Source of the DNA: Atractiella rhizophila
Taxonomy: Eukaryota
Direction of reading: 5' to 3'
Assembly: GCA_021432655.1 (NCBI GenBank)
Contig: MU271510.1
Coordinates: 1-51,569, forward strand
DNA: 51,569 nt
Shown here: positions 8,304 to 36,600 of the stretch, piece after piece
Layout of the letters: every line of letters begins with the position of its first letter
Position numbering within the stretch: the first letter of the stretch is position 1
Made by a program: the position numbers and the translations under genes
The notes under the pieces: generated by a model
Database searches by the model: none
What the model saw: the letters and a program-made list of their open reading frames with translations, nothing else
Told to the model about the DNA's origin: nothing

Positions 8304-11300
8304 TCAAGTTCTGTTCGATCCACCCAACCGCACTCCGAACAATGCAGCCATATCAGCAACTCTGTTGCGGTCGCGATTGCCTGATGCTCCTCTTTTGCCA
8401 TCAAATGCCTGCCTAGTCTTCAGATACCGGTTCCAAAAATAATGGAGGTACCCACTTGAGATACAAGCTCTTCTTTCTGCTTCTGGATGTCGAGGACCTA
8501 TTAAGAGTTTCAGAGACGAGAAATATTGCTGCTGGAAATGGTTTTAACTTGCCTTGTCCTCCACGGTGTTCTCGGCTACCATCTGAATGACGCGAACGGG
8601 CTTTGTTTGGCCAATTCGATAAACACGATCTGTAATCATAATGAGATCAAATCGACGGAATTCTAGACCATACCGATAGCCTGCTGCTCGATGGCGGACT
8701 GCCACCACGGATCGAGAAGCACCACTTGACTGGCAGCTGTGAGATTAAGACCTTTATCGAGCATCAAAAATAGGGAGTCCTCTTAACCGAAATTCTCACC
8801 GACTGCCCCTGCCTTTAAGGAGATGAGCATGACAGTCGGCGGCCCATTATCAATGGCACGATGCTTTCCACTTCTCGTTGCGAAGCCGAGACTATCAATC
8901 AAGTCCTCTGCTTTGGCTGAAAATTCGGCAATGACCTTTTCCCTTTTCTTTTGCGACATCGCACCGTCGAGCCTACATGTGGAGATGCCAGACTCCTCGA
9001 GAGCCATTTCAACCTACAGAAGCGTGAGAAAGAACGTCTACACTGAGGGGGTTGGGATTACGAACACGATTCAAATGGCTCGTCCATTGAGAAAACACCT
9101 TGTAAAGAAAGTCAGCCTGCTCAGGACACACCAAATTCTACTCACGAGTGTCTTGACTCCTTCTTCTGTATTTCGAAGGAACTCGATAAGCTTCTTCGTC
9201 TTTGCAGAATACACACCGCCTCCAGCATCTTTCTCTTTCTGCAATTCATTGAAATCGCCTTCGTCATCCTCCTTGATGTTAGGAGGTGGTAAATCGATAA
9301 GCTGACGAGCAGAAAGGTTCCCACGATCCATTGGACACTCCGGCTTGATTGATAGCGCTTCGAGGATGCAGGTTTTACAATAGACCTGTGTCTATGTGTT
9401 AGCAAGGGATAATCAGAGCAACTGACAACCGACATGTTTACATGGCTATGCATGCTCATATTAGTAAGATTAATGGCAAAATATGGCCAAAACCTTACTG
9501 TGATGACCGGATTAGTACAGCTATCGTAGCAAACCGCGCACTCGTCTTGATCCTCTACGAACCTCTCCAACACCGCCTGCAGCTCTTTAATCTTGTCCGG
9601 GTCGAGATTGACCATCACTCCTTCCTCTCCACCAACACCACGAGCATTCAATCCAATACGATTCTGCCTCACATCTTCTATGAAACTTTGGGGACATAGT
9701 ACAGGATCGCAGGCAATCTGGCGCAGACGAAGGAGAAAGGTGAGCACGGAAGTGTAGTGTCGATTAGCTTCTCCGCGTGCCACCAACTCTCGGAACGCCT
9801 CCGAGACAGCAAAGTCGACTTCATCATATAGAGCTCGAGTCATCGCATCCAATTTGACGCGGTCGGTGAGGAAAGTGAGCTCGGGTAGAGGGACGAGGGT
9901 CTTCCCATGTTTGTCTTTCATGTCTTTCGTGCTAGTAACATTCCCCATCACAACCAAGATAAAATGACGGAAGCTTGAATACGCACCGTCGCAGGGTTGT
10001 CGAGCGCACAATAGCCTCCAATGAATTTCAGTATAAATAAGAGCCTAGGCGAGCAACCGACCTTCAACATCTTGCCGCCTTCCTCTGGAGACCTCTTGAC
10101 TACTTTATCGACAAGCGTAGACCTGCACGACTTCAGGCAAGCCAATGAGGAATCGAGGTCAATAACGAACCAGTCTTCTTTCTTATCCAATGGCTTGCAC
10201 ATCTTCAAGAACTGCATCATGCTCCCCAAGTCCCCAGCATTGTTCACGATTGGAGTGCCAGTTAAAATCCATCTTCGTCTACAAACCACCTTGCACGTCA
10301 ATAAGGGTTAGAGGGAGTAATGAGGAGTACGTACTCGGCGGTGAGTCCAGCACAAGCTTTGCTCATTTTTGCTTTACGATTCTTGATCGTATGCGCCCAT
10401 TCGTATCATGAGCATAATAAACGAGGAGGAAGACAGAGAATTCACTTGAGCTGGTCAGTCCAGTTCGAAAGCACGGACAGAGGACAGCAAATTAGCGTCT
10501 ATAGAGATATCATCAGAGATTGGAGAAACAGGCAACAAAATGGATGATAGAGCGCACCATGTCATCGAACTTCGCGTCTGGGTCTTCCGGTTTGTCGATC
10601 ACCCCATCTCCGGTGTCATCAGTAGTGATAAGCGCAATGGTGGTGAGTGTTTTGCTATTATCATTCCATCACTCCCGACTCGCCTATAAAGAACGTGAAA
10701 CACACCCGAGTCCCATTTCTGTTGAAAAGTCCCAGTTCAATTTCAGCCATACTTTCACGTAAGCAAACTCACCATCAGCAAGAATGCCGCCCCTGCCCAA
10801 ATACGGCGCATGTCTAGTCATCTCTCGACTTGCAAGGTTGTACCAATATTGCTTTTTTGTTCCATCTTCCCTCGATACCCACAATTGCACCGGTTTGTCC
10901 GCTTCCTTCATTGGAGGTTCCTGAATTTCATCAAACATTGCATTAGCGTCAGCCTTTCGTCTGTTTTCGTAATAAACAACAATTGTACGAACGGGATGTT
11001 CCATCTTGATCATCCAGTACAAACCCTGTTTCTGATACCCCAGCAATGGCGTTTTGACAATCAGCTCGCCTTCATACTCCTTCATGGTGCTCAGGTCCTC
11101 TTCACCAGCAAAGCTAGCAAATAAATCAGTTCCACCTCTCACACCAGTCTGCATGCTAGCCAATATATTATTGAGCTGCTGTCTCCTCAACTCTTCTTGA
11201 CTTGGCCCAGGAGGAGCCTGACGTTGCTGTGACGATGAGGGACCTTGAGAGGAGGAGGGCATGACTTGGGAGGCGGGACGGAAGCGGCTGTTGCTAGGTG

Positions 11301-12142
11301 AAGGATACGAGGGTGTGGTTGGTGGACGGATTGACTTGGGAAGAGCAAAGGCGAAACGTGGATCGAGGAGGAGGGAGCGTTTCCCGTAAATGTGCAGCTG
11401 AACGCCGGTAGTGAAATAGTTGCGCTGGGAAACTATACCTGTATTTAATTTCAGGGAGATGCAGGGAAGGGAAACCAACAATCTGCTTGTCCCTCCAGCT
11501 TTATAGACATAGTGTCTATAAGAGGTGCGAGATTTTTTGCGAGAACGGCAGGTACGTGCCCTGTACAATAGAAGTAACTTGGAGTGAATATGAGCAGTTG
11601 CACAGAAAGGGAGCGTACCAATTTTCAGCGTGTACCCAGGATGGAGGATTTCGATTGCGTTACGATCATATCGATTATGCGGCTCACGTCTAAATGCAAG
11701 ATGTTGCCCCGCGCGCACTTCCCATATGGTCAGCACCAATCTTCATCTTTCCCTTCTCTTTGACGCAAAAGGAAAACGCACTTGATGAAGCACCGCTGTA
11801 GTGTTGCTGCCCAGCGACCTTTGAGTTCAACACCGCCAACAGCTCCTCTCCCTCTTCATCATCTCCCGTCCCATCCTGATCCTCCTCGTCCTCCTCATCT
11901 TCCAGGCCAAGCACCTCTCTCCTAGGCTCAGAATCGTCATCCAGAAGAATGACTCCGTCGACCTCCCTCGTTCGCTTCTTTAGACCACTGCTTTGTGAGA
12001 GGTTCTTTAGTGCATTTGGAGCCTCTAAATCAATAATCTCAGGCGCGGGGTCACGAGACACGCTTCCTGCAGGCGCATAACGCGGTGGAGAGGGAGCTAG
12101 AGGAATGGTGCGTTTGGCAGTGGATTTGGGGACTGCAGACAT
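8304..12142 (-). CDS. HIRAN-SNF2-RING helicase/E3 ligase (HLTF/Rad5-like), multi-exon
   Basis: HIRAN ([24 protein letters not shown]), SNF2 motifs ([42 protein letters not shown]), RING start [14 protein letters not shown], and helicase-C motifs [11 protein letters not shown] and [10 protein letters not shown]. Confidence 0.9.
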
Positions 12143-22581: not shown

Positions 22582-24785
22582 TCAAAACCCCTCGTCATAA
22601 AGCCGCCTGCAAAGACTCTTATAGAACCTCTCTAAATCGAACTTTTCCTTCTTAACAGGCTGTACTCCATACAAAAGTCTGGCCTGCTGTCGCAGCTTCT
22701 GCTCCTCCTTCTCGTTCCCACCGCCTACCCAAGGTAGGTTTCGTTTGAGAAGGTCTGGCGCTTCGAAGGAGGAGAGGTCGAGGGAGAGCGACATGGTAGG
22801 CATGGACGGGAGAGACGGGATAGACGGTAGACGGTTGAGCACCCATTCGGCGATTGCGTTCTGGGATGAGCCGGAGGATGCAGGTTTCTTGGACGAGGAG
22901 GAAGATGTGGAAGAGGAAGAAGGCTTCGCCTCCTGTTCCTGCTCCTTTGCCTTCGACGGCGTCTCGGCGTTCGCCTTAATCCATCCACCAATGATGGAGT
23001 TGACACCTTGCCATCCAGCAGAGAACCAATTAGTGTCCTCTTTTTCCTTTTCCAACTTTGTTTCATCCTTCTTCTGCAGCTCCTCCCTCGTTACCTTCTT
23101 CGTCTCCGTCTCTCCCGCCTTCTTCTTCGTCTCCGTCGGCTTCGAAAACCCACTATGGCCCCGAAGATCCCAATGGTCGCACTCGACCGTTCCCAAGAAC
23201 TCTCCCCACTTCGCGCTCTCCACAGGTACCAAGGCATCGTTTCCCCTCTTCTCCATCGGTATGTTCTCCCCATTTTGCAACCTCTTCAGCTCGATCGAGT
23301 CGAGGATGAGTTTCGGTAACCAAAGGGGATGCCACATCCCCAGTTTGGGAGCACGAGCGGCGATGGAGTAGTACTTGATGTCCTGCCTATCCGGAGTGTT
23401 TGGGTTGAAGGTGTTTTCGAGGTAGGAAGGAATGAGATTAGAGTATCCGGGAGAGTCGAGGAGGGAAAGGAGGAAGGAAGAGACGGTGTTGGACACGTCG
23501 GGAAAGCCTATTGAGAAACCACTCTTGTCTTTCTCCTTTTCGTCCGGTTTACTCTTTGACGCGGGATCATCGGGAGAAAACAGAGGAGATTTCAGAGAAT
23601 AAGGGAGCGATTGCCGATACTCGTCCTCTCCTCCCGTCATTTGTTGAGAAAAGAACTCGTCCTGGACGTTGTTGACTAGTGTCCTGAAAGAAGACCGCGA
23701 TCTTCCTACTCCAATATTGTCCCGACACCACGTCATGAATTCTGATCCTCTATGTGGTGTAGAAAGAGTCGTTAACGAGACTGGGGTGTAAGTTTTAGGG
23801 CGGATGTGAGTGAGAAGATGTCGGCAGTCCAGTCCGCCCTATCCCAGAGAGATTTCTCAGTAATGGCACCTGAGATAGACCTGGTAAGCTGAGACAAACC
23901 ATACTATGGGCCATCAAGTTCACTTCCTTCCCTCGTATCGCAGCTTCAGCCTCTAGGTGTCGATGCAACGTCTCCGCCCTCTCCTGGATCGTAGCCGTCC
24001 CAGGAACTCTCGGAGCGTACACTTCAACACCAATCTTGTCCCGCAAAATCGCCAGCAGGTCCGACCAATAGTGATAATGGTACGGTAAGGCGGGGAGAGG
24101 GACATCTGAGAACCCGTAGAGACCTTTGGGCACACGGAATTAGAACTATTTATTTCAGCTGACCGGAAGAAAGACCCACCGTGGCAGAGGACGATTGGGA
24201 AACGAGGCTTTCTCGTCGGCTCGTAGAGTGTAGGATTTGACATGAGTCGATTAATCTGATCCAACTCCGGACGCGCAGGGAGAGCTGCACGATAGTTTGC
24301 TTCTTCGCATAGCAAATCGTAAAAATTAGGTGTCTTCCTCGTTTCCCCATCCAAACGCGGAACGTCTTGCAATTCTTCCATTCCATTCTCTATTTTCTCG
24401 AAAGCAGATGGAACCTTTCCCTCCTCCTTCTTCTTTGACTCGTCTCGAGATTTCGTAGGCCTCCTCGTCTTCGAGGAGAAGGAGACGGCGCGTCATTTTC
24501 CACTGAATCCGCCATCTCTGCATCCTCCTGGTCGGCTGCGACAGAAAATCCTTCCCCAGCAATGCGAAGCCTGTCCTCCCTGTCCCTTTTGCCGATATTT
24601 AAGCTGAAAGACAAGAAGGAGACGTTTCTCGACTGTCGCACGAAGTGGTGAGGCGTCCTCGACCTCCTCCGCTTTCGCGGCGTGACTCCTGATGACGTGA
24701 GGCCTGGTGAGAGGAGCCGTCCGCGCTCTGCACAATCGACAAGGCGACGGAGCGAAGAGAACGGTGAAGGCGAGGAGAGAGACAT
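22582..24785 (-). CDS. Triacylglycerol lipase, TGL2-like alpha/beta hydrolase
   Basis: PIVLCHG|LYGF, nucleophile elbow AHSM|GGLDCRH, STPHRGS, NDALVPVESAKWGEFLG, CDHWDLRG and C-terminal FDLERFY...LYDEGF. The 5' structure is uncertain (see findings). Confidence 0.85.
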
Positions 24786-25349
24786 TGCGGCCGCCGCCAC
24801 AGCAAATCAGAGAAAACGGCGCTGAAAGAGGTGATCGCGAAAACGTTGGGGAATGGAAGGCACGTGTGCAGTCAGGAACTGGCGGCGAGTATCAGGTATA
24901 TCCTTGCAAGGGGCACAAGGGCATTAACATCCTCAATTCGCCTCAACACGGGGGATTGAAAGACTTCTGTTAATTTTCAAGGTCCACAGCTCGTACGCTC
25001 AACGCCAAAAAGTGTAAAAGTACAGTTGATTATCAATGCATGCAGGCATCCCATAACAAAGCAAGTAAGAATTGCCCTTAGGAAGAAGCATAGATGCATA
25101 AGACAGAGGCAGCGTAGCGGCGCAAAGGATACTGTTGAAAGTGTTACCGAGTCTCTTATTAACGAAAGAAAAATGAAAGTTTTTGAACACGATTGACTAC
25201 TTTTATGCACGTATAGCACGAATCAAACGATCCTAGTTTAAAGCATCTGCGATGTGCTGCAGTATGCTAAAAAGCCAAAACTTTTGTAACACAAAAACAA
25301 ATCTTAGACCAAGCGATTACACCTACTTTCGGCCTATTCGTTCCATCTG

Positions 25350-26952
25350 CTACCAACCGCCTCCCATAGCCAACTAGAGCACTGTTAGAACAATGTCTAG
25401 ACCAAACATGAGCGTACATACCTCGAATTCAACATACTCTCTAACTTGATCTTGGGAAAAGCGCGTGGCCGTAAAGATGCTAAACTGGGCAACAAAGTCA
25501 TAAAAGAAGGCGGGAAGGGAAATGAACGCCACTAACCCCATCGAGAAATCGAAGCATAACCTCTCTCTTGTTGCTACGAACGGGATCTGGATCCACTGAA
25601 GAACGCATGGGCATGGTTACATTGGCTGAAGGATTCATGGTTATGTCGGCATTGTTAGAGTTGGTCGCGAAGACGTGGTTCGAGCTCGAACCCTCCTCTG
25701 AGTGGCCCGCATAGGGGAAGCCGGAAGCTGCGGGGGAGCGGATGTACATGTCCAGGTCGACACCCAAAGGAAAAGAGATGGATGAATCCTAGATAGAATC
25801 AGAATCATTGTGTCAACTTAGTCTAACAGAACTCAAAATCGCCCACCTGACGTGACGACGTGGATCCCCGACGGACGTGTTCTCCAGTCACCCCTGAATT
25901 CATGATCGAAGAAGTCTGGGAAGCAAGATGGGAAGTGCTCGGTGTCGCTGACACCTAATGGTGGGGATTACTTCAGTATATTCGGGTTCTCAAGTTTGGA
26001 AGTGTTCCCACCTGAGACAAAGGAGGTCTTTCGGTTTGTGGTGCCTGTTCCCTCAAAGTGTTCGCAGTTGCTGGCGCCTAAAGTGAAGTGTTTTCAGTAT
26101 ACTCTGACCTCGAGTTTAAGGGTATCGCACCTGAGGTAAAAGAGGACCTTCGCTTTGGTATTCCTGTCCTCGGAATTGGGATCTCAAAGACATGTCTACC
26201 GGTTCTGTGTATTTCAGTTTCATCTGGCAGACTCTCTTGAGTTCCTGGAAGTCTTTGAATCTCCCACAATGACCTTCAATGTGTCCAGCGATCTTTCCTG
26301 GTCTCTGCATGGGACAGTGCGCGACGTTCAGATTGGCTGGACGGTTGTTTCCGGTAAAAGCAAATCTCTCTTTGAAGAACTCGAACTTTTGCCCACAAAG
26401 TCCCCCCCTGTTTCGGTGCCTGCAGTGCCCTGCACAATCCGCCAAAAAGAAAGCCATGCCCTTGATCCAGTTTCCTGGATCTTCAGATAGTATCACGCGG
26501 CGTTCAAACGATTCTGCGTTCCCGAGCGTGATGTGAATGATATCAGGATATTTATGACGCGAAAAGACTAAGTGGTCCGCCCCATCAAAAGGTTCCTCAG
26601 AGATGGTCGTCATCGACACATAATAAGTGCGGTCGGATTCGCTCTGACGATAGGTGAGGAAAGTGTCGACGCCTCCTTGACGCTTGATTGCATGAACTTG
26701 TCGGCCGCGAGGATTCCGGACATCGAATTTTTTTCGTTGAGCATTGTTGTCGAAGACCTTCCGAAATGTTTCTGGTGCGCGTTGCTGATATATAGCTTGA
26801 TTCGAGCCTTCGGCTTCAGAAAATACCTTATGGGCTACGAACAAAGCTTGATCATGGGTTAAACCGAGGAGAGATGAATCGGTTTGACGAGGAGGAGCAG
26901 AGGAGTCATCGGTCTGAAAACTGCTGTCCAGGTTTAAGTCGACCGGCTCCAT
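25350..26952 (-). CDS. Uncharacterised protein A (Cys/His core domain), paralogue of A'; 6 predicted exons
   Basis: ORF 26116-26952 continues through phase-0 GT-AG introns into ORF 25498-25767, a 63-nt exon (25422-25484) and a final LAMGGGW* exon. Confidence 0.75.
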
Positions 26953-27016
26953 GCTTCGTTACATGCAACCTCACATTCAAGGAACTGAATCCCGCCTGCT
27001 TTTATCAGTGAGAAGT

Positions 27017-27186
27017 GGTTTAACCTGCGTGAAGGCGTTCAATTCGGCTAACTCGTCAAGCATCCAAACAAACATCGATCATCTCAATAGGACGGTGCGA
27101 AATTGAACTGACCTTTGCACTGCTCTCACTCTTTTGTTCCAAGCAATTCAAAGGCACGCCTTCCAATACCGGCCGAAAGCTGTCAA
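27017..27186. promoter_or_regulatory. Bidirectional promoter of pair A/B with conserved motifs
   Basis: GGTTTAACCT (27017), ATCCAAACAAAC (27062-27073) and AGCTGTCAA (27178-27186) recur in the same order in the A'/B' intergenic region. Confidence 0.6.
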
Positions 27187-27269
27187 AGTGCCTCTGGCTG
27201 TGATCTTGTCCCTCCTCAATTCTACATAAATCCTGCAACTCGAAGGCCTTAGAAACGCACCAACTGACG

Positions 27270-28644
27270 ATGTCGAATGACGGTGGAACATGGCAACAAT
27301 TTTATCCATTCTCATCTGAACAGCATCGCGAATCTTTGAAGAACCCCCGGGAGGTCGGTGATAATGCATCATCATCGACTGCAGTGGTAGCTGGTGGTTT
27401 CGGTGGTACAGGGACATTGTTGGGTATCACTTCAGAAGGCGACGGTGGAGTGAGAATAGACCTTGGGTTACAGCGCGGCCAAACTGGAGCTGTAACAATA
27501 CCGCCAGCTGATTGGAACTCATGGATGGTGCCGTTTTCTCCATCCTTTGTTCCTCTATCTGAGGTGATATTTAGCAAACATACGCAAACCGTTTTATTCC
27601 CGCCAACGATTCGTCAACTACTTTAGCAGAACAGCTTCCAGGAACTTCTCCTCAGCCGCTTAGTCGAAGCTCGGGAACGGGCATGAAAGCGTACGACAAA
27701 AAAGAAGTCATGCTCCTCTATTCGGTCGAACCGACAAACCCAACCTTGTACGGTGCCATTCATATTCACACAAAACGGATCTGGGAATCTTGTGAAGCAG
27801 AATATTCAAGGCTCAAGCAGGACCCCTCGCATCTAGCGTTCATGCTAAAAGCAGACTGTCCTCGAATCTCGGCTACGCCTCAGAATGCTGTCCATCGAGA
27901 AGTTTTCCCATGGAGCGAGTTTGAGTTGTGGATCAAGGGGATTGCAGCCTACTTTGGGCCGTGTCGCAACGGACACAGTTTTTACAATACGGGTAAAACT
28001 GCGATGGGAAGACCGATTCACATCTGCGAACACTTCGAGACTTGTCATAATCATCACCTCGAAGGTTTGAATTTGGCAGAGATGTGCAAACTGATGAAGA
28101 AGACTCTGTTAGCTCTTCGTTTCTCTTCATATAGTCGCTGAAGCCAATAAGTAGCCCCAATTCCAGGCGCAAAAGCTCTGCATCAAACTCTGCAAAAAAT
28201 GCAGCGCTGACTGCGAAGGGGGGTCATAGGCGTAGGAACGTCAGTTTGAACACAGGAGGATACAATGTCGCATCAACAAGCGACATCCTCGTCCATGGGC
28301 CACGTGCAAGGCTTCCCCCACCCAATGGCAGATGGCGATCAGATGTTATCACCATTCGTATGTTGACGGCAGTACGTCATTCTCGCAGAGGCACACTCAG
28401 TATCTTAGCGGTGCTATAGCACTACTTTTGGGCACACTCCGAGAATCGTTTCGAAGCTGAATGGGCATTTCTTCAACAAGTAAGTCCGGTGTCTTCCTCA
28501 ACAAAGATTCTGAAATGGGAGCAGTGGAAACAGCTAGAGGATAACGACATACAAAACATGTCCGATGTTGATTTTCAAGCGTGGTTAACGAACTCTTGGG
28601 TCCCTTCCTTACCTAAATCTGCCTTAACTCAGGAAACGCAGTAA
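27270..28644 (+). CDS. Uncharacterised protein B (Cys/His core domain), paralogue of B'; 5 predicted exons
   Basis: Intron 27528-27574 joins ORF 27270 in frame to ORF 27683-28141. Later exons give PNGRWRSDVITIRMLTA|HYFWAHSENRFEAEWAFLQQ|WKQLEDNDIQ...ETQ*. Confidence 0.75.
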
Positions 28645-29868
28645 CATGGTGTAGTCATTATGCATACATGGGCCCTGTTTTTCCGTTCTCGAGCTTAGCC
28701 GAATCATGTATCAAGAATCGTTGGAATGAATTTCAAAGGATATCTTCAAAGCTCGTCACGAACATGAACGTAGGACAGCAGTGACTTTGCACCTGCAGTG
28801 CTACATCCATCTCGCGCGGCAAGCTAGGAAAGAGACGCACTTCCTAGACTGAGACACCACACACCAATTAACCACTCGACCTGTTCCTCACCACTCCCAC
28901 TCATATTTTTTTTTTTGGAGTCGGCATCTTGAAACCAAGAAGCATACAGGCTACCACATACTCACCGCTCTATTCAGAGTGTCTAATAATATTCGGGCTA
29001 GGTCTGCGACCCGTTCGATTTCTTGAAAGGGTGGGCAAGTTGAGGCGTTCGATCAGAGGATCTTCTTTGGTCGTCTTTGAGACGGAGTCAGAACGAATTG
29101 TGACACGCTTCATGGAGAGGTCCAACCTGAAGGTAGCCATGAAAGGGCAGATGAAAGATCGATGGGGATGGTTTGCTGAGGGAAAGAAAGTATCTATTAA
29201 GGTTAGCGCAAAAATCTCGTGTTGATTGCTTCCGAAACAGGAAACTTTTTGGTTGATATTACTGCCAGGGTGCCAGTGATGGGTCGGTCGATGAATGTTG
29301 GATGTTGCTTCTACAACTTGTCCCACACCAAGTCCTTCAAAACGTAGCCGGGTTATCGACCTCCAGAGCCATTTTAGACTGCGTCCAAGCAAGTTTCATG
29401 TTGAAACCAGATAACTTAAATCCAAATTCTAAGGTCTATTCGCTTAATGTTAGCAATCAGCTTGCATGAGTAAATGGGACGAGAATCGGCCACTTCTGAG
29501 TTCGAGTGTATTTTGACGCGGTAGACCTGAAATCCAATCATACTTGCAGCTCGTGTGTAAGTAAAACAGCAGACAAATTAAATGATAGTATTGGAACAGA
29601 GAGTCCATGCACATGTACCACAACCTGACAAATGCAACGGTACTGAGCATCATCGATGCGGATATTAGGTGTAGTGAAATCTAATGTCGTGTGTCCGATA
29701 AGCGATTCGATTTTGCAAGTCCAAGGTTGTGAAGCTTCGTAAACTGGAGCCATTGGAAGAAAGGAACTGATAGTAAGTTGTTACAAGGATAGTGTTTCCG
29801 ACGAAAAAATTGGCACGTGGAGATGAAGGGAACGAGAGTGTGCGAGTCCCGCCACATTAGGTGGTGAT

Positions 29869-31393
29869 CTAGGCAGGGAACTACACAAAGTTGAGGGCGG
29901 AGCTTTACTGAAAGGAAGAACAGTCAACGAACCTGCATGTCTACGAATTGTTGGTATACATCTTGAGCAACTTCAACTTTAGCAAAGGCGGTAAACTAAG
30001 AACCGTTCAGCAATACGCTACATTTAGAAAATTGGCTACTTGCATCTTTCAGGATGTGGAGCAGGCCGATCTTGTCGGCAGAGTGTAAGTCGCCGTCGTG
30101 CATCAAGAAATCCGCATTATGGTCCGCCAGTGTCACGGTCTCAGATTCACCTCCTATCCAGTCAAACTCCATACCCGATGGAGTAGGGTGAAGGAGGGAA
30201 GAAGTAGTAGCAGGTGTTGGGGTCGCAGTATTGCAGTTCTGGAAAGGAGGGGGAATGGGGGTGCTTCTTCGAGCCTAAAATTGGTCGGTAAGTAAGACTC
30301 AATAATGTGAAGAAAAGAATGCTCACATCAGGTGCCGATGCTGATCGTTGGAGCAACTGTCCCGCCTGTTTTCACCATCTGTCATTGTAGCCTGTGAAAT
30401 AACGGACGCACTCTTTGAGTCGGTGCCGACTTCTCCCACTTCTGTTGACAGATTGTCTTGAACTCCGGGAATGCCTCCATCTGTGCGCAATAAACCGCAT
30501 GACTAGCGATTTCGCAAGGCTTCTTCATTGGACATTTATCGACTCTGACATTTGTAGGAAGCGCCTGCAGCTTGAAGACGAACTCTTCCTCGTAGGCTTC
30601 AAATCTTTGCGTGCAACCATGATGGCAATTCCCCATGAAGAACGCGAGTGTCTTGATGAAATCCTTGGGGTCATCGGCCAATGTCACGATACTGTGGTCT
30701 GCAACCTGTCGTTTATTCATATCCCACTTGATCTTTATCGCGCGAGGGTAGATTTCGCGCTTGAGGACAACAACGTTGGGAGGCAAATCGGGACCCCCGC
30801 TGGGACCGGTCCAAAGAGACCACTTCCCGTCGACACCAAAAGCGTAGCAAGCGTCGGTGTCCCCTTTGTCATACGTTAGAAGGGTTAACGTGTTGCCTTG
30901 GGGTTTTCGTGCCAAGACCGCCACTCCAAAGGGATTGGTGACATCTGGAATATGTCCGGGTGGTGGATATGAAGAGGAGCGATGGTGAAGCTTTGGGGGG
31001 GACGCGCTAGCAGTCGGTTGGAGGAGCTCATTAGTAGATGAACTCGCTGGAGGATTGATGGTGATATAAGGTACCTCAGGGCATGAAGGCTGACAATGAG
31101 AACATGGAACTACGACAAACATGATTCAGCGTCCCTCGAGAGTGGGTGACATTCATACCGCCTCTGGAATGATTATCGAGACAGGCCAGGTGAGCATCTC
31201 GAATTTGGTTAGGGAGCGGTTGTTCCCAGTCCCTGGTTCGAAGCAAATTGAAAATCCCGCAGGTTAACTCACTTGAGAGAGGAGGAAAGCTCGCGGCGGT
31301 TAAAGGAGGTTTTGGATCTGTTGCACTGGTAAAGGTGCCTTGAAAACTGTCGATGGGTTGTCCACCCTTTATCTCTAGGTACCCCTCCCTCAT
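29869..31393 (-). CDS. Uncharacterised protein A' (paralogue of A)
   Basis: ORFs 31076-31393 and 30382-31122 are joined by an intron. Downstream exons include a 63-nt exon (29933-29995) matching the one in A; intron 29996-30043 has a GC donor. Confidence 0.75.
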
Positions 31394-31508
31394 GTTATTG
31401 AAATGAAAATGACGAAAGAGAGGGGGGTCGGAGTTTAAAAAGAATCGCCCATTTCGCGTTCAGGCCGTACACGTCCATCGCGTTTCGCTGTGTTGCCAAA
31501 GACGTATC

Positions 31509-31661
31509 GGTTAACCTTGGGCTCTATCTAATCCAAACAAACCCATTCAAACCACGATCAAATGGAAGTCATTCTGGTGAATAGAGGAAGGTTATCAATC
31601 AAAGTTAGACAATTTAGGCTCACGCGCTCACGAATTGCGGGCACTGTAACTCAGCTGTCAA
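31509..31661. promoter_or_regulatory. Bidirectional promoter of pair A'/B' with conserved motifs
   Basis: GGTTAACCT (31509), ATCCAAACAAAC (31531-31542) and AGCTGTCAA (31653-31661). Confidence 0.6.
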
Positions 31662-31783
31662 TGTCTTTGCTATGGATTTGGGCATTGGACACAAAATCAG
31701 AGTTTAAAAAACCTCTGCTTCGGTGCAGAGAAGCATACTCTGAGTCTCTGAGTCTGAACCAAGACGAAGAGTGTCTGGTTAGA

Positions 31784-33347
31784 ATGTCTGACGACGAGAT
31801 TGACTTTGGAAATGAAGAGGACCGCGAGGACCATGCCTCATCGTCGTCTGGAGTTCTCGTGGGAGGTCTCAACGGAACCAGCAGGTTCATAGGAAGAGTT
31901 TCACAAGATGACGATGCAGACACCTTGCGCCTCCAAGTCCACGTCGAGGATGGTCAAATGCAGCTCCCAATTCCTGCAGGTTTGTGGGGTAACTTCATTG
32001 TGAGTCCTCATCTTTCTCTCATATACTTGTCCCACACAGTTCATTAGGAATCTCCTTTCGTCCAAGAACATCTCATACCCACTTTGCGTCCTGATGAGCC
32101 ACAGATGCCTGCCCTTCAGCACACACAGAGATCGCGACGTCACGTGAACTCTAACGTGGTATCGGTACCCTCCACTTCCGCGTTACCTGCACATTCACCC
32201 ATAATTCCACCGCGAGATCAACCATACCAGCAAGGAAACAGCATACAGGCTTTTGATAATAGAGGAATCATGTTGCACTATGACTGCAAGCCAAGACCAC
32301 GTATACTGTACGGTTCTATCGAGAAAGCAACAAAGCGAGTGTCCGAAAGAACCCTCAGCGAATACAGACAGCTGGAAGGAGATGGAAGGCACCTCAGATT
32401 TTCCCTTACGGACAATTGTCCTCGTATTTGGTGTCATCACAACAGCCGGCGCCCAGTGCAGGAGCTCTTTCCTTGGAACAACTTCAACCTGTGGCTTAAA
32501 GGTATGGCCGCCTATATTGGATATTGCAGCCACGGGCCCAGTCCCTACAATAATCCAGAAAGGACGGTCATGGGCAGACCCATAAAGATATGCCAACACT
32601 TGGAAAAATGTTCCCGACATGATATTGAAGGGTTGAATTTGTCAGAAATATGCAAAGAGATGAAGTATACGTATGCCTTCTTGTCGGATTTTCATTGATT
32701 CCTTGATTAATGCTGGCATCAATATAGGCGGCCTCGGCCTGCGCCAGCACGGCGGCTCTCAGTGCAAGTGCGACAACCTCAAGCCTCCTCACCACAGCCT
32801 GCAGCCTCAGTACAGCCTCAAGCCCCAGTGCGACTGGAGACTGTCTCACTTCGACAGCTCCAAGTCCAACAACCTCAAGCCCCATTGTTGCAACAACCTC
32901 GCGGGCCAGTGCGCCAGTCTCAAGTCCCATCTCAACACCGCCAAGTACCATTTCAACAGCGTCAAACCCCAGTGTTGCCGCAACCTCAACGCCCAGTGGG
33001 ACAATCTCAAATCCCATTGCAACGTTCTCAAGATGGAAGGTGGAGGTCAGACCAAAACATAAGGCGAATGCTAGTCGCGGTACAATTTTTGGTAATGCAG
33101 GCACTGAAACTCATAATGCTTTAGTACCGTTTGTGGATTTCAATATGCCCAATATCAGATGGGGAAGAGTCTTTTTTAGATTATGTATGGGACGATTTTG
33201 CCTCGCAAAACCAAGCTGATGAATCGGCAGTGGAAGGGCCTTGAAGATCGCGGAATCGCAGAGGGCTCCGAGCAGGATTACAACAATTACATGCAACAAA
33301 CTGAATGGTGTGCATTCAAGTTCCCAAACCCACTACGTGGTTTTTGA
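31784..33347 (+). CDS. Uncharacterised protein B' (paralogue of B) with a Gln/Pro-rich repeat
   Basis: Exon 1 DHASSSSGVLVGGLNGTSRFIG...PAGLWGNFI; core ORF 32084-32698; Q/P exon ending DGRWRSDQNIRRMLVA|YRLWISICPISDGEESFLDY|WKGLEDRGI...RGF*. Confidence 0.75.
32770..33030 (+). repeat. Coding Gln/Pro-rich degenerate tandem repeat (~7-aa units; 87-nt duplication)
   Basis: QVPSQHR QVPFQQR QTPVLPQP QRPVGQS QIPLQRS; 32879-32937 resembles 32966-33024. Confidence 0.7.
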
Positions 33348-33687
33348 TGACATCCTGCAGAAATCAATAACGACGATGAGTTTTGTTAGTATCTTGTTTT
33401 GTCGGAAATGTTTGCAGAGTACCAAGGCTAGGAGTTGAAAGAACCAAACTGACATTGCCGTTCGAAGCCTGTCATGGACATGGATGTGGTGCAGCGGTGC
33501 TTAATCATCCGAGCACGACATTCATCTCGCACGAGAAGCAAGGAAGGAGACACACTTCCTCAACTGAGAGAGAACCCACCGAACAGCCGAGATCCACCAC
33601 TCCTTCCTTTCTCATTTAGACCGACAATAAAAGTAAAACTTCATTCCATCACAAATTATCATCAAACAAAGCAGTCCGTTGGCAGGT

Positions 33688-36600
33688 TCAGGTCCTGTTA
33701 AGAGTCCCATTCGTCAATGTGGAGAAGTCAGTAGGTAGGCGTTCTGCGACGCCTTCGATCTCGACTTCTTCAAATGCCCTCTGTATCTCCTCTCCGTTCG
33801 CAACCGAGCCATGTTTCAGTGCCTCCTTCCGCGAAGCAATGTAAGCCAGAGTGTTTCGAAAGTGAGCAACAGTCGCCTCGATCGTGTTCACCCCTTCGAC
33901 GAGACCAGAAGTGGCACCTCCTCCTTGAAAGGATGGCTGAATAGATATCTCGTTCTCTGGTGATGGAGAGGCGATGGAGTCGATATTGCTTGATATAAGT
34001 TCCACCAGGCTATTAATGTGCCGAGACGAAACCTACAAACGGACGTGTTAGAACCTTTACACCCATCACGCAGTTTTCACTTACGGTTTCGACCTGATGC
34101 TCGAAATAATAAAGATATTGATCTAGAGCATCGCAATATAGTTGAATGCTCGTCAGTTCGTCGATACTGCTTGTTGCGATTCGAAGGACCTTCTGTAGGC
34201 ACTCCAACACCCGTTTTCCATCGCGGAAGAATTCCTGTGATCATGGGAATCGGCCATCAAAAAGGACGCAATGTGGGATGGGTACGGACGTACTTCATCA
34301 TTATCCGGGTCACGTTCTCGGCCAAGGGTCTCAGTCTGCCACCAGAGGTGACTGGCAAAACCAACTGCCGTGGCTTGTTGTCCCTTCTTGAGAAGTTTTG
34401 AACCATGGAGTGCGGCCTTTGTGATGAGTGTGTCATAGTTGTCGTTACCAAAAACGCTCGTGGCTTGAATGGCTCCGATGAGAAACGTGATAGCTTGAAG
34501 CTGTGCGCGAGATTCCGAAATAGACTCCTCGTAGATTGTAAACGCTTTCAAACACATATTAGCTTCATCCAGTTCGGGTAAAAGCGCGATCCACGAACCT
34601 TCAACTGCAAATTGATAAGCAAGTTCCTCTTGCTCTGTTTCGTCTGCAGTTTGCATAGCCATAACGTAAAGTCTCAGGCAAATTTCAGAGCTCTCCACCT
34701 TATTGTAAAGTATTGACGTTGTGGCATGAATCCAGCGGAATAGACCATTAATCTTGCCAAGGAAATCATCAATCTGAGCTATCATCAGCACCTCCGGTCC
34801 TAACATGAAGGGAGAAGACATACAGTCTCTTCTCGATACTTATACCTTCTCGCCAGCCGAATAGCCTCAATAACAAGAGGCGGGAACGTCCACCTAATGC
34901 GGTCCCCGCCCTGCTGGAACTCGCGTCGAGCGGTTTGAAGTAGTTCGAATTGTGTTTCGAGGTCATCAGCCTTGAAGAGATGGACCATTCTCGCGACCCA
35001 CCCTTGCTCCTCTGCCATCTCTTCAGGTCATACTGCTGGACTCCTCTTTGTGCACCTCTTCCAGGCGGCGCCATCCCCATCCCTACCGCCGCATCCCTTT
35101 GATCTTTGATGAGCACATGACAAATCTCCAGTATACCTTTAACGTCTTCGACGGTGTCAATTGGGGTTTCGTTCTTGAGGATAGACGAGATGATAGCGTG
35201 CGATACAGACTTTCTTGATGTGTAGGGTTGTAATGAAAGGAGTGGGAGGTAAGACGGAAGAGCGAGCAGGGTGAGAGCGGAAGCGTAGGAATGGACCGGA
35301 GCTAGGAGGAGAGAGAGGGAATTGCCAATCGTGATTGGGTGATGAAGGTCAGGGCTGTCCGAATATTCGGACATCTTTCGACGAGCGAAGGCGAGAACTT
35401 GGTCAACATATTCGAGGCGGTCCGGATAACAGCTAAGCGCAAGGTTGGTGATGGAAACGAGGAGAGCGGTAATGTCTTGAATCGAGAGGTCAGGTCGATT
35501 CTGTGTCCATTCAATATTGCTGTAGGTAAATAAGCAAAGCGGAGCGTACCTTAATGAGCTCAGTGACTTGAAACCAGAAAATTTCGAATAGTCTAACGTT
35601 CTCAGGGATTCCTCTAAACCGGTCTGCCTTCTCATCTACCGGTTCCTTCTTCTCGTCGACCTTCTTCTCTTCTGAACCACCATTCGCCTTCTGTCCATCA
35701 GTGCTGCCATCATTCGAGCCATGCGCTGCTTTCTCCCAACTCCCACTGTCAGGGCTAACAGCCCTCGTCCTCACCTTCTCTAGCAGCCTCTTGCCGGCCG
35801 CTTCCTCCTTCCGCTTTCGCTCCTCCGGAGACTCATTTTCGGATTCACGTGCCGCATAAGCCGCCAAACGGTCGATGAGCGCAATGACGATCGCTTTGAT
35901 GTTAACTTTGGGGTGAAGGTGGGCGGTTGCGGAGAGGAAGGGAGTAAGGGTAAAAAGATGGAATTCGTCCGTGAACACCTATGTATCTCGCATTAGGGAC
36001 AAACAACTAACACGGGGATGGCGTACTTGAATAACGACCTCCATCAAGTATTCTTGAGCGATAACATCTTTACAATTGACGACTTGTTCGAGCACGGAAG
36101 GGAGGATGACTTTCCTATATGTCTCGAGATCCACGCCGTCGAGTTGCGATAAGCGAACCAAGTTCGTGCCTACTAGAATGCGCAGTTCCTTCCTTTCGAT
36201 CTCCCTCTTTTCCCTGTCTCTAGAGAGACCTTGATGCTGCAGGCGCACCCAAAGCTTGTTCATCTCGATAAAGTTGGTAAGAATAAAGCCTATGGAATCC
36301 TGGACATTCCCTCCCGGTCTAAACTTTCTTAGTGACACAGGCAAGCCAAAGTAGAGGGAAGAAACGTACCCAGGATCATCCCCAATAGGTAGATGGTCTC
36401 TCGTCATTCCGCTCAAATAATGCCGCAAAAATAAACCTCTTGTTGGGTGCTGAACCCCCCGGGTCATCTCCATCATATCCTTCATAATTTCCTTCGTGGG
36501 GGCATCCTTGATAGACATGTAGACAGTACCGACGGTAATCATGAGGTAAAGTCGGGGAACGATGTTTCCAGCATACTGAACGAGCTCGTATAAGTCGGCA

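Follow-up and report, generated by a model that had tools for sequence, protein, structure and literature searches.

Divergent paralogue pairs on a bidirectional promoter are a general genomic pattern. Among fungi, the consulted excerpts of PMC8851545 describe gasdermins as allorecognition cell-death toxins that are mostly encoded in two-gene clusters with proteases, and those of PMC9815663 discuss the clustering of receptor and effector pairs; as far as these excerpts go, both papers cover such cell-death systems mainly in ascomycetes. Here we analyzed a 51,569-bp contig of Atractiella rhizophila, a basidiomycete of the Pucciniomycotina (the whole stretch is called the window below), whose encoded proteins are recorded as BT69DRAFT hypothetical proteins. 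The window contains four homologous genes, named A, B, A′ and B′, arranged as two divergent pairs. The explanation that best accounts for the locus as a whole, and to which we give slightly better than even chances, is a direct tandem duplication of an A/B two-gene unit from an orphan family, with the pair acting as a two-part module. Titles and abstract beginnings of the listed papers on Atractiella rhizophila showed nothing on its genes; the family itself is nameless and hence offers no term to search, so that its absence from print is judged from the lack of Pfam and PDB entries alone.

In the order A(-), B(+), A′(-), B′(+), the genes form two neighbouring head-to-head pairs with all four frames open, and each pair brings together two different protein classes in divergent orientation, as HD1/HD2 pairs do. 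The observation behind the original prediction, which had described this layout from the DNA letters, is confirmed and its interpretation is supported in part. All peptide strings that the prediction had quoted are present in the stop-to-stop open reading frames (ORFs) 26116-26958(-), 27575-28141(+), 30382-31125(-) and 32048-32698(+), and its left edge at 25350 coincides with the stop codon of A (25350-25352). The start codons, which it had placed about 320 and 390 bp apart, are separated by 317 bp in the first pair (A at 26952, B at 27270) and by 390 bp in the second (A′ at 31393, B′ at 31784). The coding sequences are as follows:

25350..26952, minus strand: gene A (our model: 444 aa, 6 coding exons, open frame, five short GT..AG introns)
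27270..28644, plus strand: gene B (annotated as P0003 / KAH8918386, 389 aa; our B′-guided model has 406 aa)
29869..31393, minus strand: gene A′ (P0002 / KAH8918387, 425 aa, 6 exons)
31661..33361, plus strand: gene B′ (six exons; 483 aa from the first ATG at 31661, or 442 aa from the ATG at 31784)

To describe the relationships among the four proteins, we compared their conserved domains by pairwise and profile alignment. The A and A′ domains share 33% identity (E 1e-29) and the B and B′ domains 47% (E 3e-45), B and B′ being mutual nearest relatives. These values, together with four open and transcribed frames, agree with the predicted picture of strongly diverged but intact paralogues. Pairwise comparison of A with B revealed a weak likeness (E 0.004), and the A-type and B-type profiles matched each other in hhalign at 92% probability (E 6e-7, 51 columns). 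Each subtype also matched the profiles of a third Atractiella type and of a metagenome type at 93-98% (96-98% for the metagenome type). When a hidden Markov model (HMM) of the family was run against the 1112 six-frame ORFs of the window, exactly four of them were matched (E 1e-41 to 1e-53), the next one having an E of 0.8:

26200..26727, minus strand: A domain, A-type (family HMM E 1e-53)
27683..28108, plus strand: B domain, B-type (family HMM E 3e-42)
30421..30954, minus strand: A′ domain, A-type (family HMM E 6e-47)
32243..32677, plus strand: B′ domain, B-type (family HMM E 1e-41)

The homology of A with A′ and of B with B′, and the claim of a single unrecognised family, are thus borne out by the pairwise E values, by an HMM that is limited to these four genes in the window and by the lack of a Pfam family. 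In a maximum-likelihood tree the B-type sequences form a clade with support 100/99 on a long branch, and the A-type sequences a clade with support 73/95. Over 15 aligned family sequences the domain carries the motifs W-x-K-G-x-A...G-x-C and P-x-x-I-x-x-H-x4-C, in which P, K (of W-x-K-G-x-A), P, H and C never vary and W, G, C and I vary hardly at all. In all four proteins the domain is surrounded by low-complexity linkers and followed by a subtype-specific, acidic/aromatic-rich C-terminal tail. No signal peptide or membrane segment was found in the four proteins, in which no 19-residue window rises above 1.1 on the Kyte-Doolittle scale, and each protein is therefore predicted to be soluble and intracellular.

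The distribution of the family was analyzed by searching a four-domain profile against 1,835,955,588 representative proteins with a cut-off of E<=0.001. This search produced 15 matches, of which 14 are true: 10 proteins from A. rhizophila and 4 unnamed metagenome proteins encoded on contigs of 1.1-3.1 kb. The 15th match, P0015, proved to be a protein of fibronectin-III repeats and was excluded as false. Gene A is missing among the matches, the nearest of which is 46% identical to it; because a protein less than 50% identical to its nearest match would be expected to have a representative of its own if annotated, A is probably unannotated. With A included, the A. rhizophila family has 11 members, four in the window and seven on six other contigs, the latter comprising 3 A-type, 2 B-type and 2 third-type paralogues. 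B, A′ and B′ carry successive GenBank numbers, indicating that the numbering follows gene order, and two dispersed A-type genes on one contig lie 12 numbers apart. No relative was confirmed when metagenome contigs were scanned twice, once with the metagenome-type alignment and once with that of the B-type. No Pfam family scored above its cut-off in the 13 proteins scanned or in the four window ORFs; two sub-threshold rows, Gp44-like_2nd (E 0.19) and SPARK (E 0.041, 14.7 bits against a cut-off of 25), were dismissed. A search of PDB sequences with the family profile returned one row at chance level (E 0.089). As judged from these searches, the family is almost confined to Atractiella rhizophila.

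We then modelled the domain with AlphaFold2 using the 15-sequence family alignment. The A′ domain model reached a predicted local distance difference test (pLDDT) of 85.5 and a predicted template modelling score (pTM) of 0.85, and the B′ domain model a pLDDT of 81.4 and a pTM of 0.77. Both models show a compact domain of six or seven strands followed by helices, with the W-x-K-G-x-A motif opening the first long helix. Foldseek found no clear match for the models in the PDB (best E 0.13 and 0.41), a search of a viral structure library gave none either (best E 0.05), and the ESM Atlas gave no lead for the A′ domain (feature scores <=0.87; template modelling score (TM) of structures <=0.42). As far as the searched libraries show, both the protein family and its predicted fold would be new. 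In A′-domain numbering, the candidate metal ligands are C110 (14 of 15 sequences), H152 and C156 (both in 15/15), with a fourth Cys provided by C169 (11/15) or C114 (8/15), and the conserved Cys/His motif may form a putative structural zinc site. A complex prediction for the A′ and B′ domains, run twice without family alignments or controls, scored 0.00 and favours neither binding nor its absence.

Splicing of the four genes was analyzed with RNA from X2, a public run carrying the same organism label. Its contigs skip short GT..AG or GC..AG segments, indicating that X2 is RNA, and they provide 15 splice joints over the locus. For A′, a single spliced contig of 1815 nt holds all five introns and its longest ORF is identical to P0002. 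One of these introns, 29996-30043 on the minus strand, has a GC..AG boundary (GCAAGT...TCTTAG), and its joint is present in the RNA contig. For B′, five GT..AG joints lie in one contig with the frame open, and the stop codon is interrupted by an intron (33306/33360-33361). The GenBank record of B′ is a partial protein of 181 aa (P0001 / KAH8918388) that agrees with the splice 32670|32728. Exon 3 of B′ is Gln/Pro-rich, and at 32765-33013 it contains four loose repeats of a 21-nt unit that are 76-100% alike. The introns of A and B were placed partly by RNA joints and partly by inference:

26078-26130, 25955-26011, 25789-25846, 25485-25536 and 25374-25421, minus strand: introns of A (the last two seen in RNA, the first three inferred)
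27048-27112, minus strand: intron in the 5′ untranslated region of A (joint in an RNA contig; the A transcript reaches upstream to at least 27215)
27528-27574, 28108-28166 and 28372-28419, plus strand: introns of B (28372-28419 alone seen in RNA; the first placed by homology to B′)

The splice positions assigned to B by homology coincide with those of B′, after ...W-x-x-[FW]-[IM] and after RML-x-A, the latter being seen in the RNA of B. The upstream exon of A has an apparent likeness to exon 1 of A′ and was considered as coding; this was rejected, as a stop lies two codons past the splice.

All four genes are transcribed. Contigs on all four were also present in a root metatranscriptome from another study (run X1), one of them spliced at an A′ joint. 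An X1 contig joins 30365 to 30417 with five other letters between them where X2 splices 30364|30411, and this joint is either a variant allele or an alternative A′ splice in a related strain. The depths of the X2 contigs (about 1-7 for A/B and 36-68 for A′/B′) are unsuitable for ranking expression. Between the 3′ ends of B and A′, X2 RNA covers 28762-29583 with a summed depth of 39.8 over 28762-29035 that drops to about 9-10 as far as 29583. The two ORFs located there, 28872-29222(+) and 28973-29395(-), have no Pfam match, and this RNA may be a long 3′ untranslated region of A′ or a small unannotated transcript. Within the divergent regions, the A contig extends to 27215, 55 bp short of the B start codon, and the A′ and B′ contigs end 62 bp apart (31577 and 31640). 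Because the contigs nearly meet, each pair appears to have a very short common promoter region. The features of these regions are:

26953..27269: intergenic region of pair 1 (317 bp between the A and B start codons)
31394..31660: intergenic region of pair 2 (267 bp when B′ starts at 31661, the in-frame ATG further upstream)
27062..27073, plus strand: 12-mer ATCCAAACAAAC, copy 1, within the intergenic region of pair 1
31531..31542, plus strand: 12-mer ATCCAAACAAAC, copy 2, within the intergenic region of pair 2

The 12-mer ATCCAAACAAAC occurs twice in the 51.6-kb window, once per divergent intergenic region and in the same orientation, with 0.03 shared 12-mers expected. It may be a cis-element, a weak candidate because the pattern was picked post hoc from the data. 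Local alignment of the two intergenic regions scored 24, inside the shuffled range (null maximum 33), and the exact 12-mer alone stands out.

We also compared the RNA with the assembly. Over 25200-33400, X2 differs by 12 single-base changes and one 6-nt deletion. Those within A′/B′ amount to 8 non-synonymous and 2 synonymous changes and the 6-nt deletion, which is in frame, and 5 of these 11 differences fall in the Gln/Pro-rich exon 3 of B′; the A/B half has differences at 25293 and 28556. X2 may therefore derive from another haplotype or strain than the assembly. In both runs A′/B′ is more variable than A/B relative to the assembly, with contigs that are 95-100% alike.

These data allow a stepwise origin of the locus to be proposed. 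Because the A and B types are homologous, inverted duplication is the simplest source of a head-to-head unit: one ancestral gene would have been duplicated in inverted orientation to give the A/B unit, which would then have been copied en bloc to give A(-) B(+) A′(-) B′(+). The direct order A<- ->B A′<- ->B′ is the pattern expected from tandem duplication of a two-gene block. Copies of the A lineage may later have spread to other genomic sites. Over the domain, A shares 49% identity with the dispersed paralogue P0004 but 37% with A′, which suggests either a later departure of A-lineage copies from the locus or faster evolution of A′. In the present-day locus, a common promoter would deliver A and B together, and the two proteins, by way of the conserved domain and the short tails, could jointly form an intracellular module of two parts with a regulatory or adaptor role.

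Several observations weigh against this interpretation. A layout inherited by duplication requires no functional link between the genes. The GenBank numbers of all seven dispersed paralogues are non-adjacent to those of any family member, so each type may act alone; this numbering evidence is weak because the annotation misses members, A being absent from the protein matches and B′ partial. The profile match between the A and B types spans just 51 columns. Branching within each type is weakly supported in the tree, 7 of the 12 inner branches being open, and the tree gives no support for A/A′ and B/B′ having split at the same time. Finally, just three of the candidate metal ligands are invariant or nearly so, the fourth Cys being found in 11/15 sequences. 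Hence, of the original proposal that A and B are obligate partners duplicated as a unit, the duplication as a unit stands, backed by the tandem order, whereas the partnership does not find support, the dispersed A- and B-type paralogues without an annotated partner being weak evidence against it.

To weigh other explanations, we examined the surroundings of the locus with a Pfam scan of 63 ORFs, picked by eye among the 102 window ORFs of at least 110 aa. This revealed a housekeeping set: F-box/WD40, SNF2/HIRAN, adaptin, phosphopantetheinyl transferase, NAPRTase, an RRM protein, a sugar-phosphate transporter, VPS35, AAA ATPase, aminotransferase, arylsulfotransferase and a RING protein. The right flank was thereby identified as VPS35, as had been proposed; the left flank, named a TGL2-like lipase, showed just a sub-threshold alpha/beta-hydrolase match (E 0.057), which leaves that name unconfirmed. 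At 9951-11742 on the minus strand, ORFs with SNF2-related and HIRAN domains neighbour one another in a Rad5-like helicase arrangement, an ordinary context. The scan of the 63 ORFs found no transposase, integrase, reverse transcriptase, homeodomain, pheromone receptor, protease or NOD-like receptor (NLR; NACHT/NB-ARC), and no terminal inverted, long terminal or long direct repeats were detected around either pair (23000-36000 examined).

These surroundings bear on two alternatives. The locus could be a mating-type-like or self/non-self system in which A and B of different alleles pair as an active regulator through a new DNA-binding/dimerisation domain. Divergent transcription, two dissimilar classes and tandem duplication fit this idea, as do the Gln/Pro-rich stretch of B′ and the C-terminal tails of all four proteins, since acidic/aromatic tails are of the kind seen in activation domains; the higher number of differences in A′/B′ than in A/B in both runs points in the same direction. 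However, no homeodomain or other DNA-binding Pfam family was found in the four proteins. The absence of a homeodomain, noted already in the original prediction, holds for a Pfam search of the four ORFs (E<=1) and of the full-length proteins (E<=0.1). Moreover, the flanks are housekeeping genes with no mating-type genes nearby, other paralogues apparently stand alone, and the contigs of the two runs show only small strain differences, whereas mating-type loci typically show deep allelic divergence. We consider this alternative quite improbable. A mobile-element cargo or remnant, in which the family multiplied by transposition and the pair is the gene set of the element, is in our view very improbable. 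Eleven copies on seven contigs of one species, with almost none elsewhere, would suit such an element, and the first ~50 residues of the A-type protein P0006 bear a weak likeness to the C-terminal end of a DDE_3 transposase (E 0.2; 12 bits, below the cut-off of 28.6). P0006, which lies on another contig, may owe this stretch to a gene model that was fused with the remnant of a transposon. Against this alternative, the scans described above gave neither repeats at the pairs nor transposase, integrase or reverse transcriptase genes, the viral structure library gave no match, and the copies are 33-49% identical as proteins, so any spread would be ancient. The possibility that a known transposon or a characterised family explains the layout was thus checked, and neither a Pfam, PDB or Foldseek match nor repeats or a transposase were found.

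A third alternative arises from two B-type paralogues outside the window. In P0007 (611 aa) and P0010 (447 aa) the B-type domain is C-terminal (profile matches at 501-598 and 350-440) behind a long N-terminal region. It could thus be the C-terminal regulator of gasdermin-like pore formers, the free-standing A and B proteins being trans-acting sensors, inhibitors or triggers of a cell-death or allorecognition module. By ESM Atlas features, the 30 clusters nearest to residues 1-400 of P0007 are all unannotated and mostly basidiomycete (0.95), and the nearest named ones are Bact_GSDM (0.85) and PJVK/Gasdermin (0.81). By structure, the same residues match basidiomycete hypothetical proteins at TM 0.65 and a WD40-fused cluster at TM 0.61, and Gasdermin D, pejvakin and two bacterial gasdermin clusters at TM 0.33-0.35 by query. 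The 8 non-synonymous against 2 synonymous X2 changes in A′/B′, with the in-frame deletion, hint at relaxed or diversifying selection, and fungal two-gene cell-death clusters are documented in the excerpts of PMC8851545 and PMC9815663. However, the Atlas model of P0007 is poor (pLDDT 0.44), its TM to named gasdermins is below 0.5, and sequence searches lend the link no support: Pfam returned nothing for P0007 and P0010 even at E<=10, PADLOC was empty, and PDB sequences yielded no gasdermin. A, B, A′ and B′ have no P0007-like N-terminal region and no Gasdermin or Bact_GSDM Pfam match, PADLOC was empty for P0002 and P0003, and a suspected motif common to B exon 1 and P0007 was non-significant (E 0.91). 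No protease or NLR gene was present among the window ORFs scanned, and the A′/B′ polymorphisms are few and stand without a comparison to flanking genes. We judge this alternative unlikely. Its more specific form, in which the domain would serve as a new regulator in a pyroptosis-like pathway of basidiomycetes and co-transcribed polymorphic A/B partners would restrain or trigger a P0007/P0010 executioner, we judge slightly less likely still.

By itself the gene layout is unremarkable, tandem and inverted duplicates being common. More striking is the protein family, with 14 true matches in 1.84 billion proteins, no Pfam family and two confident models that found no clear match among solved structures. 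Should the domain prove to be a new metal-bound interaction module, fungal biology would gain both a fold and a family. If the gasdermin link holds, it would give testable access to the regulated cell death of Pucciniomycotina, and a true cell-death function would mean a self/non-self or anti-pathogen switch built on an unseen fold. The family may bear on how this root endophyte handles self, non-self or host.

Compared with known systems, the locus resembles the HET-Q1 gasdermin/HET-Q2 protease and HET-S/NWD2 clusters in having tightly linked two-gene units that are lineage-specific and fast-evolving. As a lead only, it also recalls HET-Q1/HET-Q2 through the two B-type paralogues with an N-terminal region whose nearest named look-alikes are gasdermins. 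Unlike in these clusters, gasdermin, HeLo, protease and NLR domains were not found in the window proteins or the neighbours scanned; and in contrast to known fungal clusters, in which the partners come from unrelated families (excerpts of PMC8851545), A and B are homologous. With HD1/HD2 (bE/bW) pairs the locus shares dissimilar classes in head-to-head orientation, a short common promoter, possible tandem duplication and intracellular proteins with low-complexity, activation-like tails; it differs from them in that a homeodomain is lacking, A and B are distant paralogues and the setting is one of housekeeping genes without mating-type context. Like divergent paralogue pairs with a bidirectional promoter, it can be described as an inverted duplicate on the promoter of its parent, the unit then being copied in tandem. 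It departs from ordinary pairs of this kind in that its family is nameless and both subtypes are intact in both units despite an identity of 33-47%.

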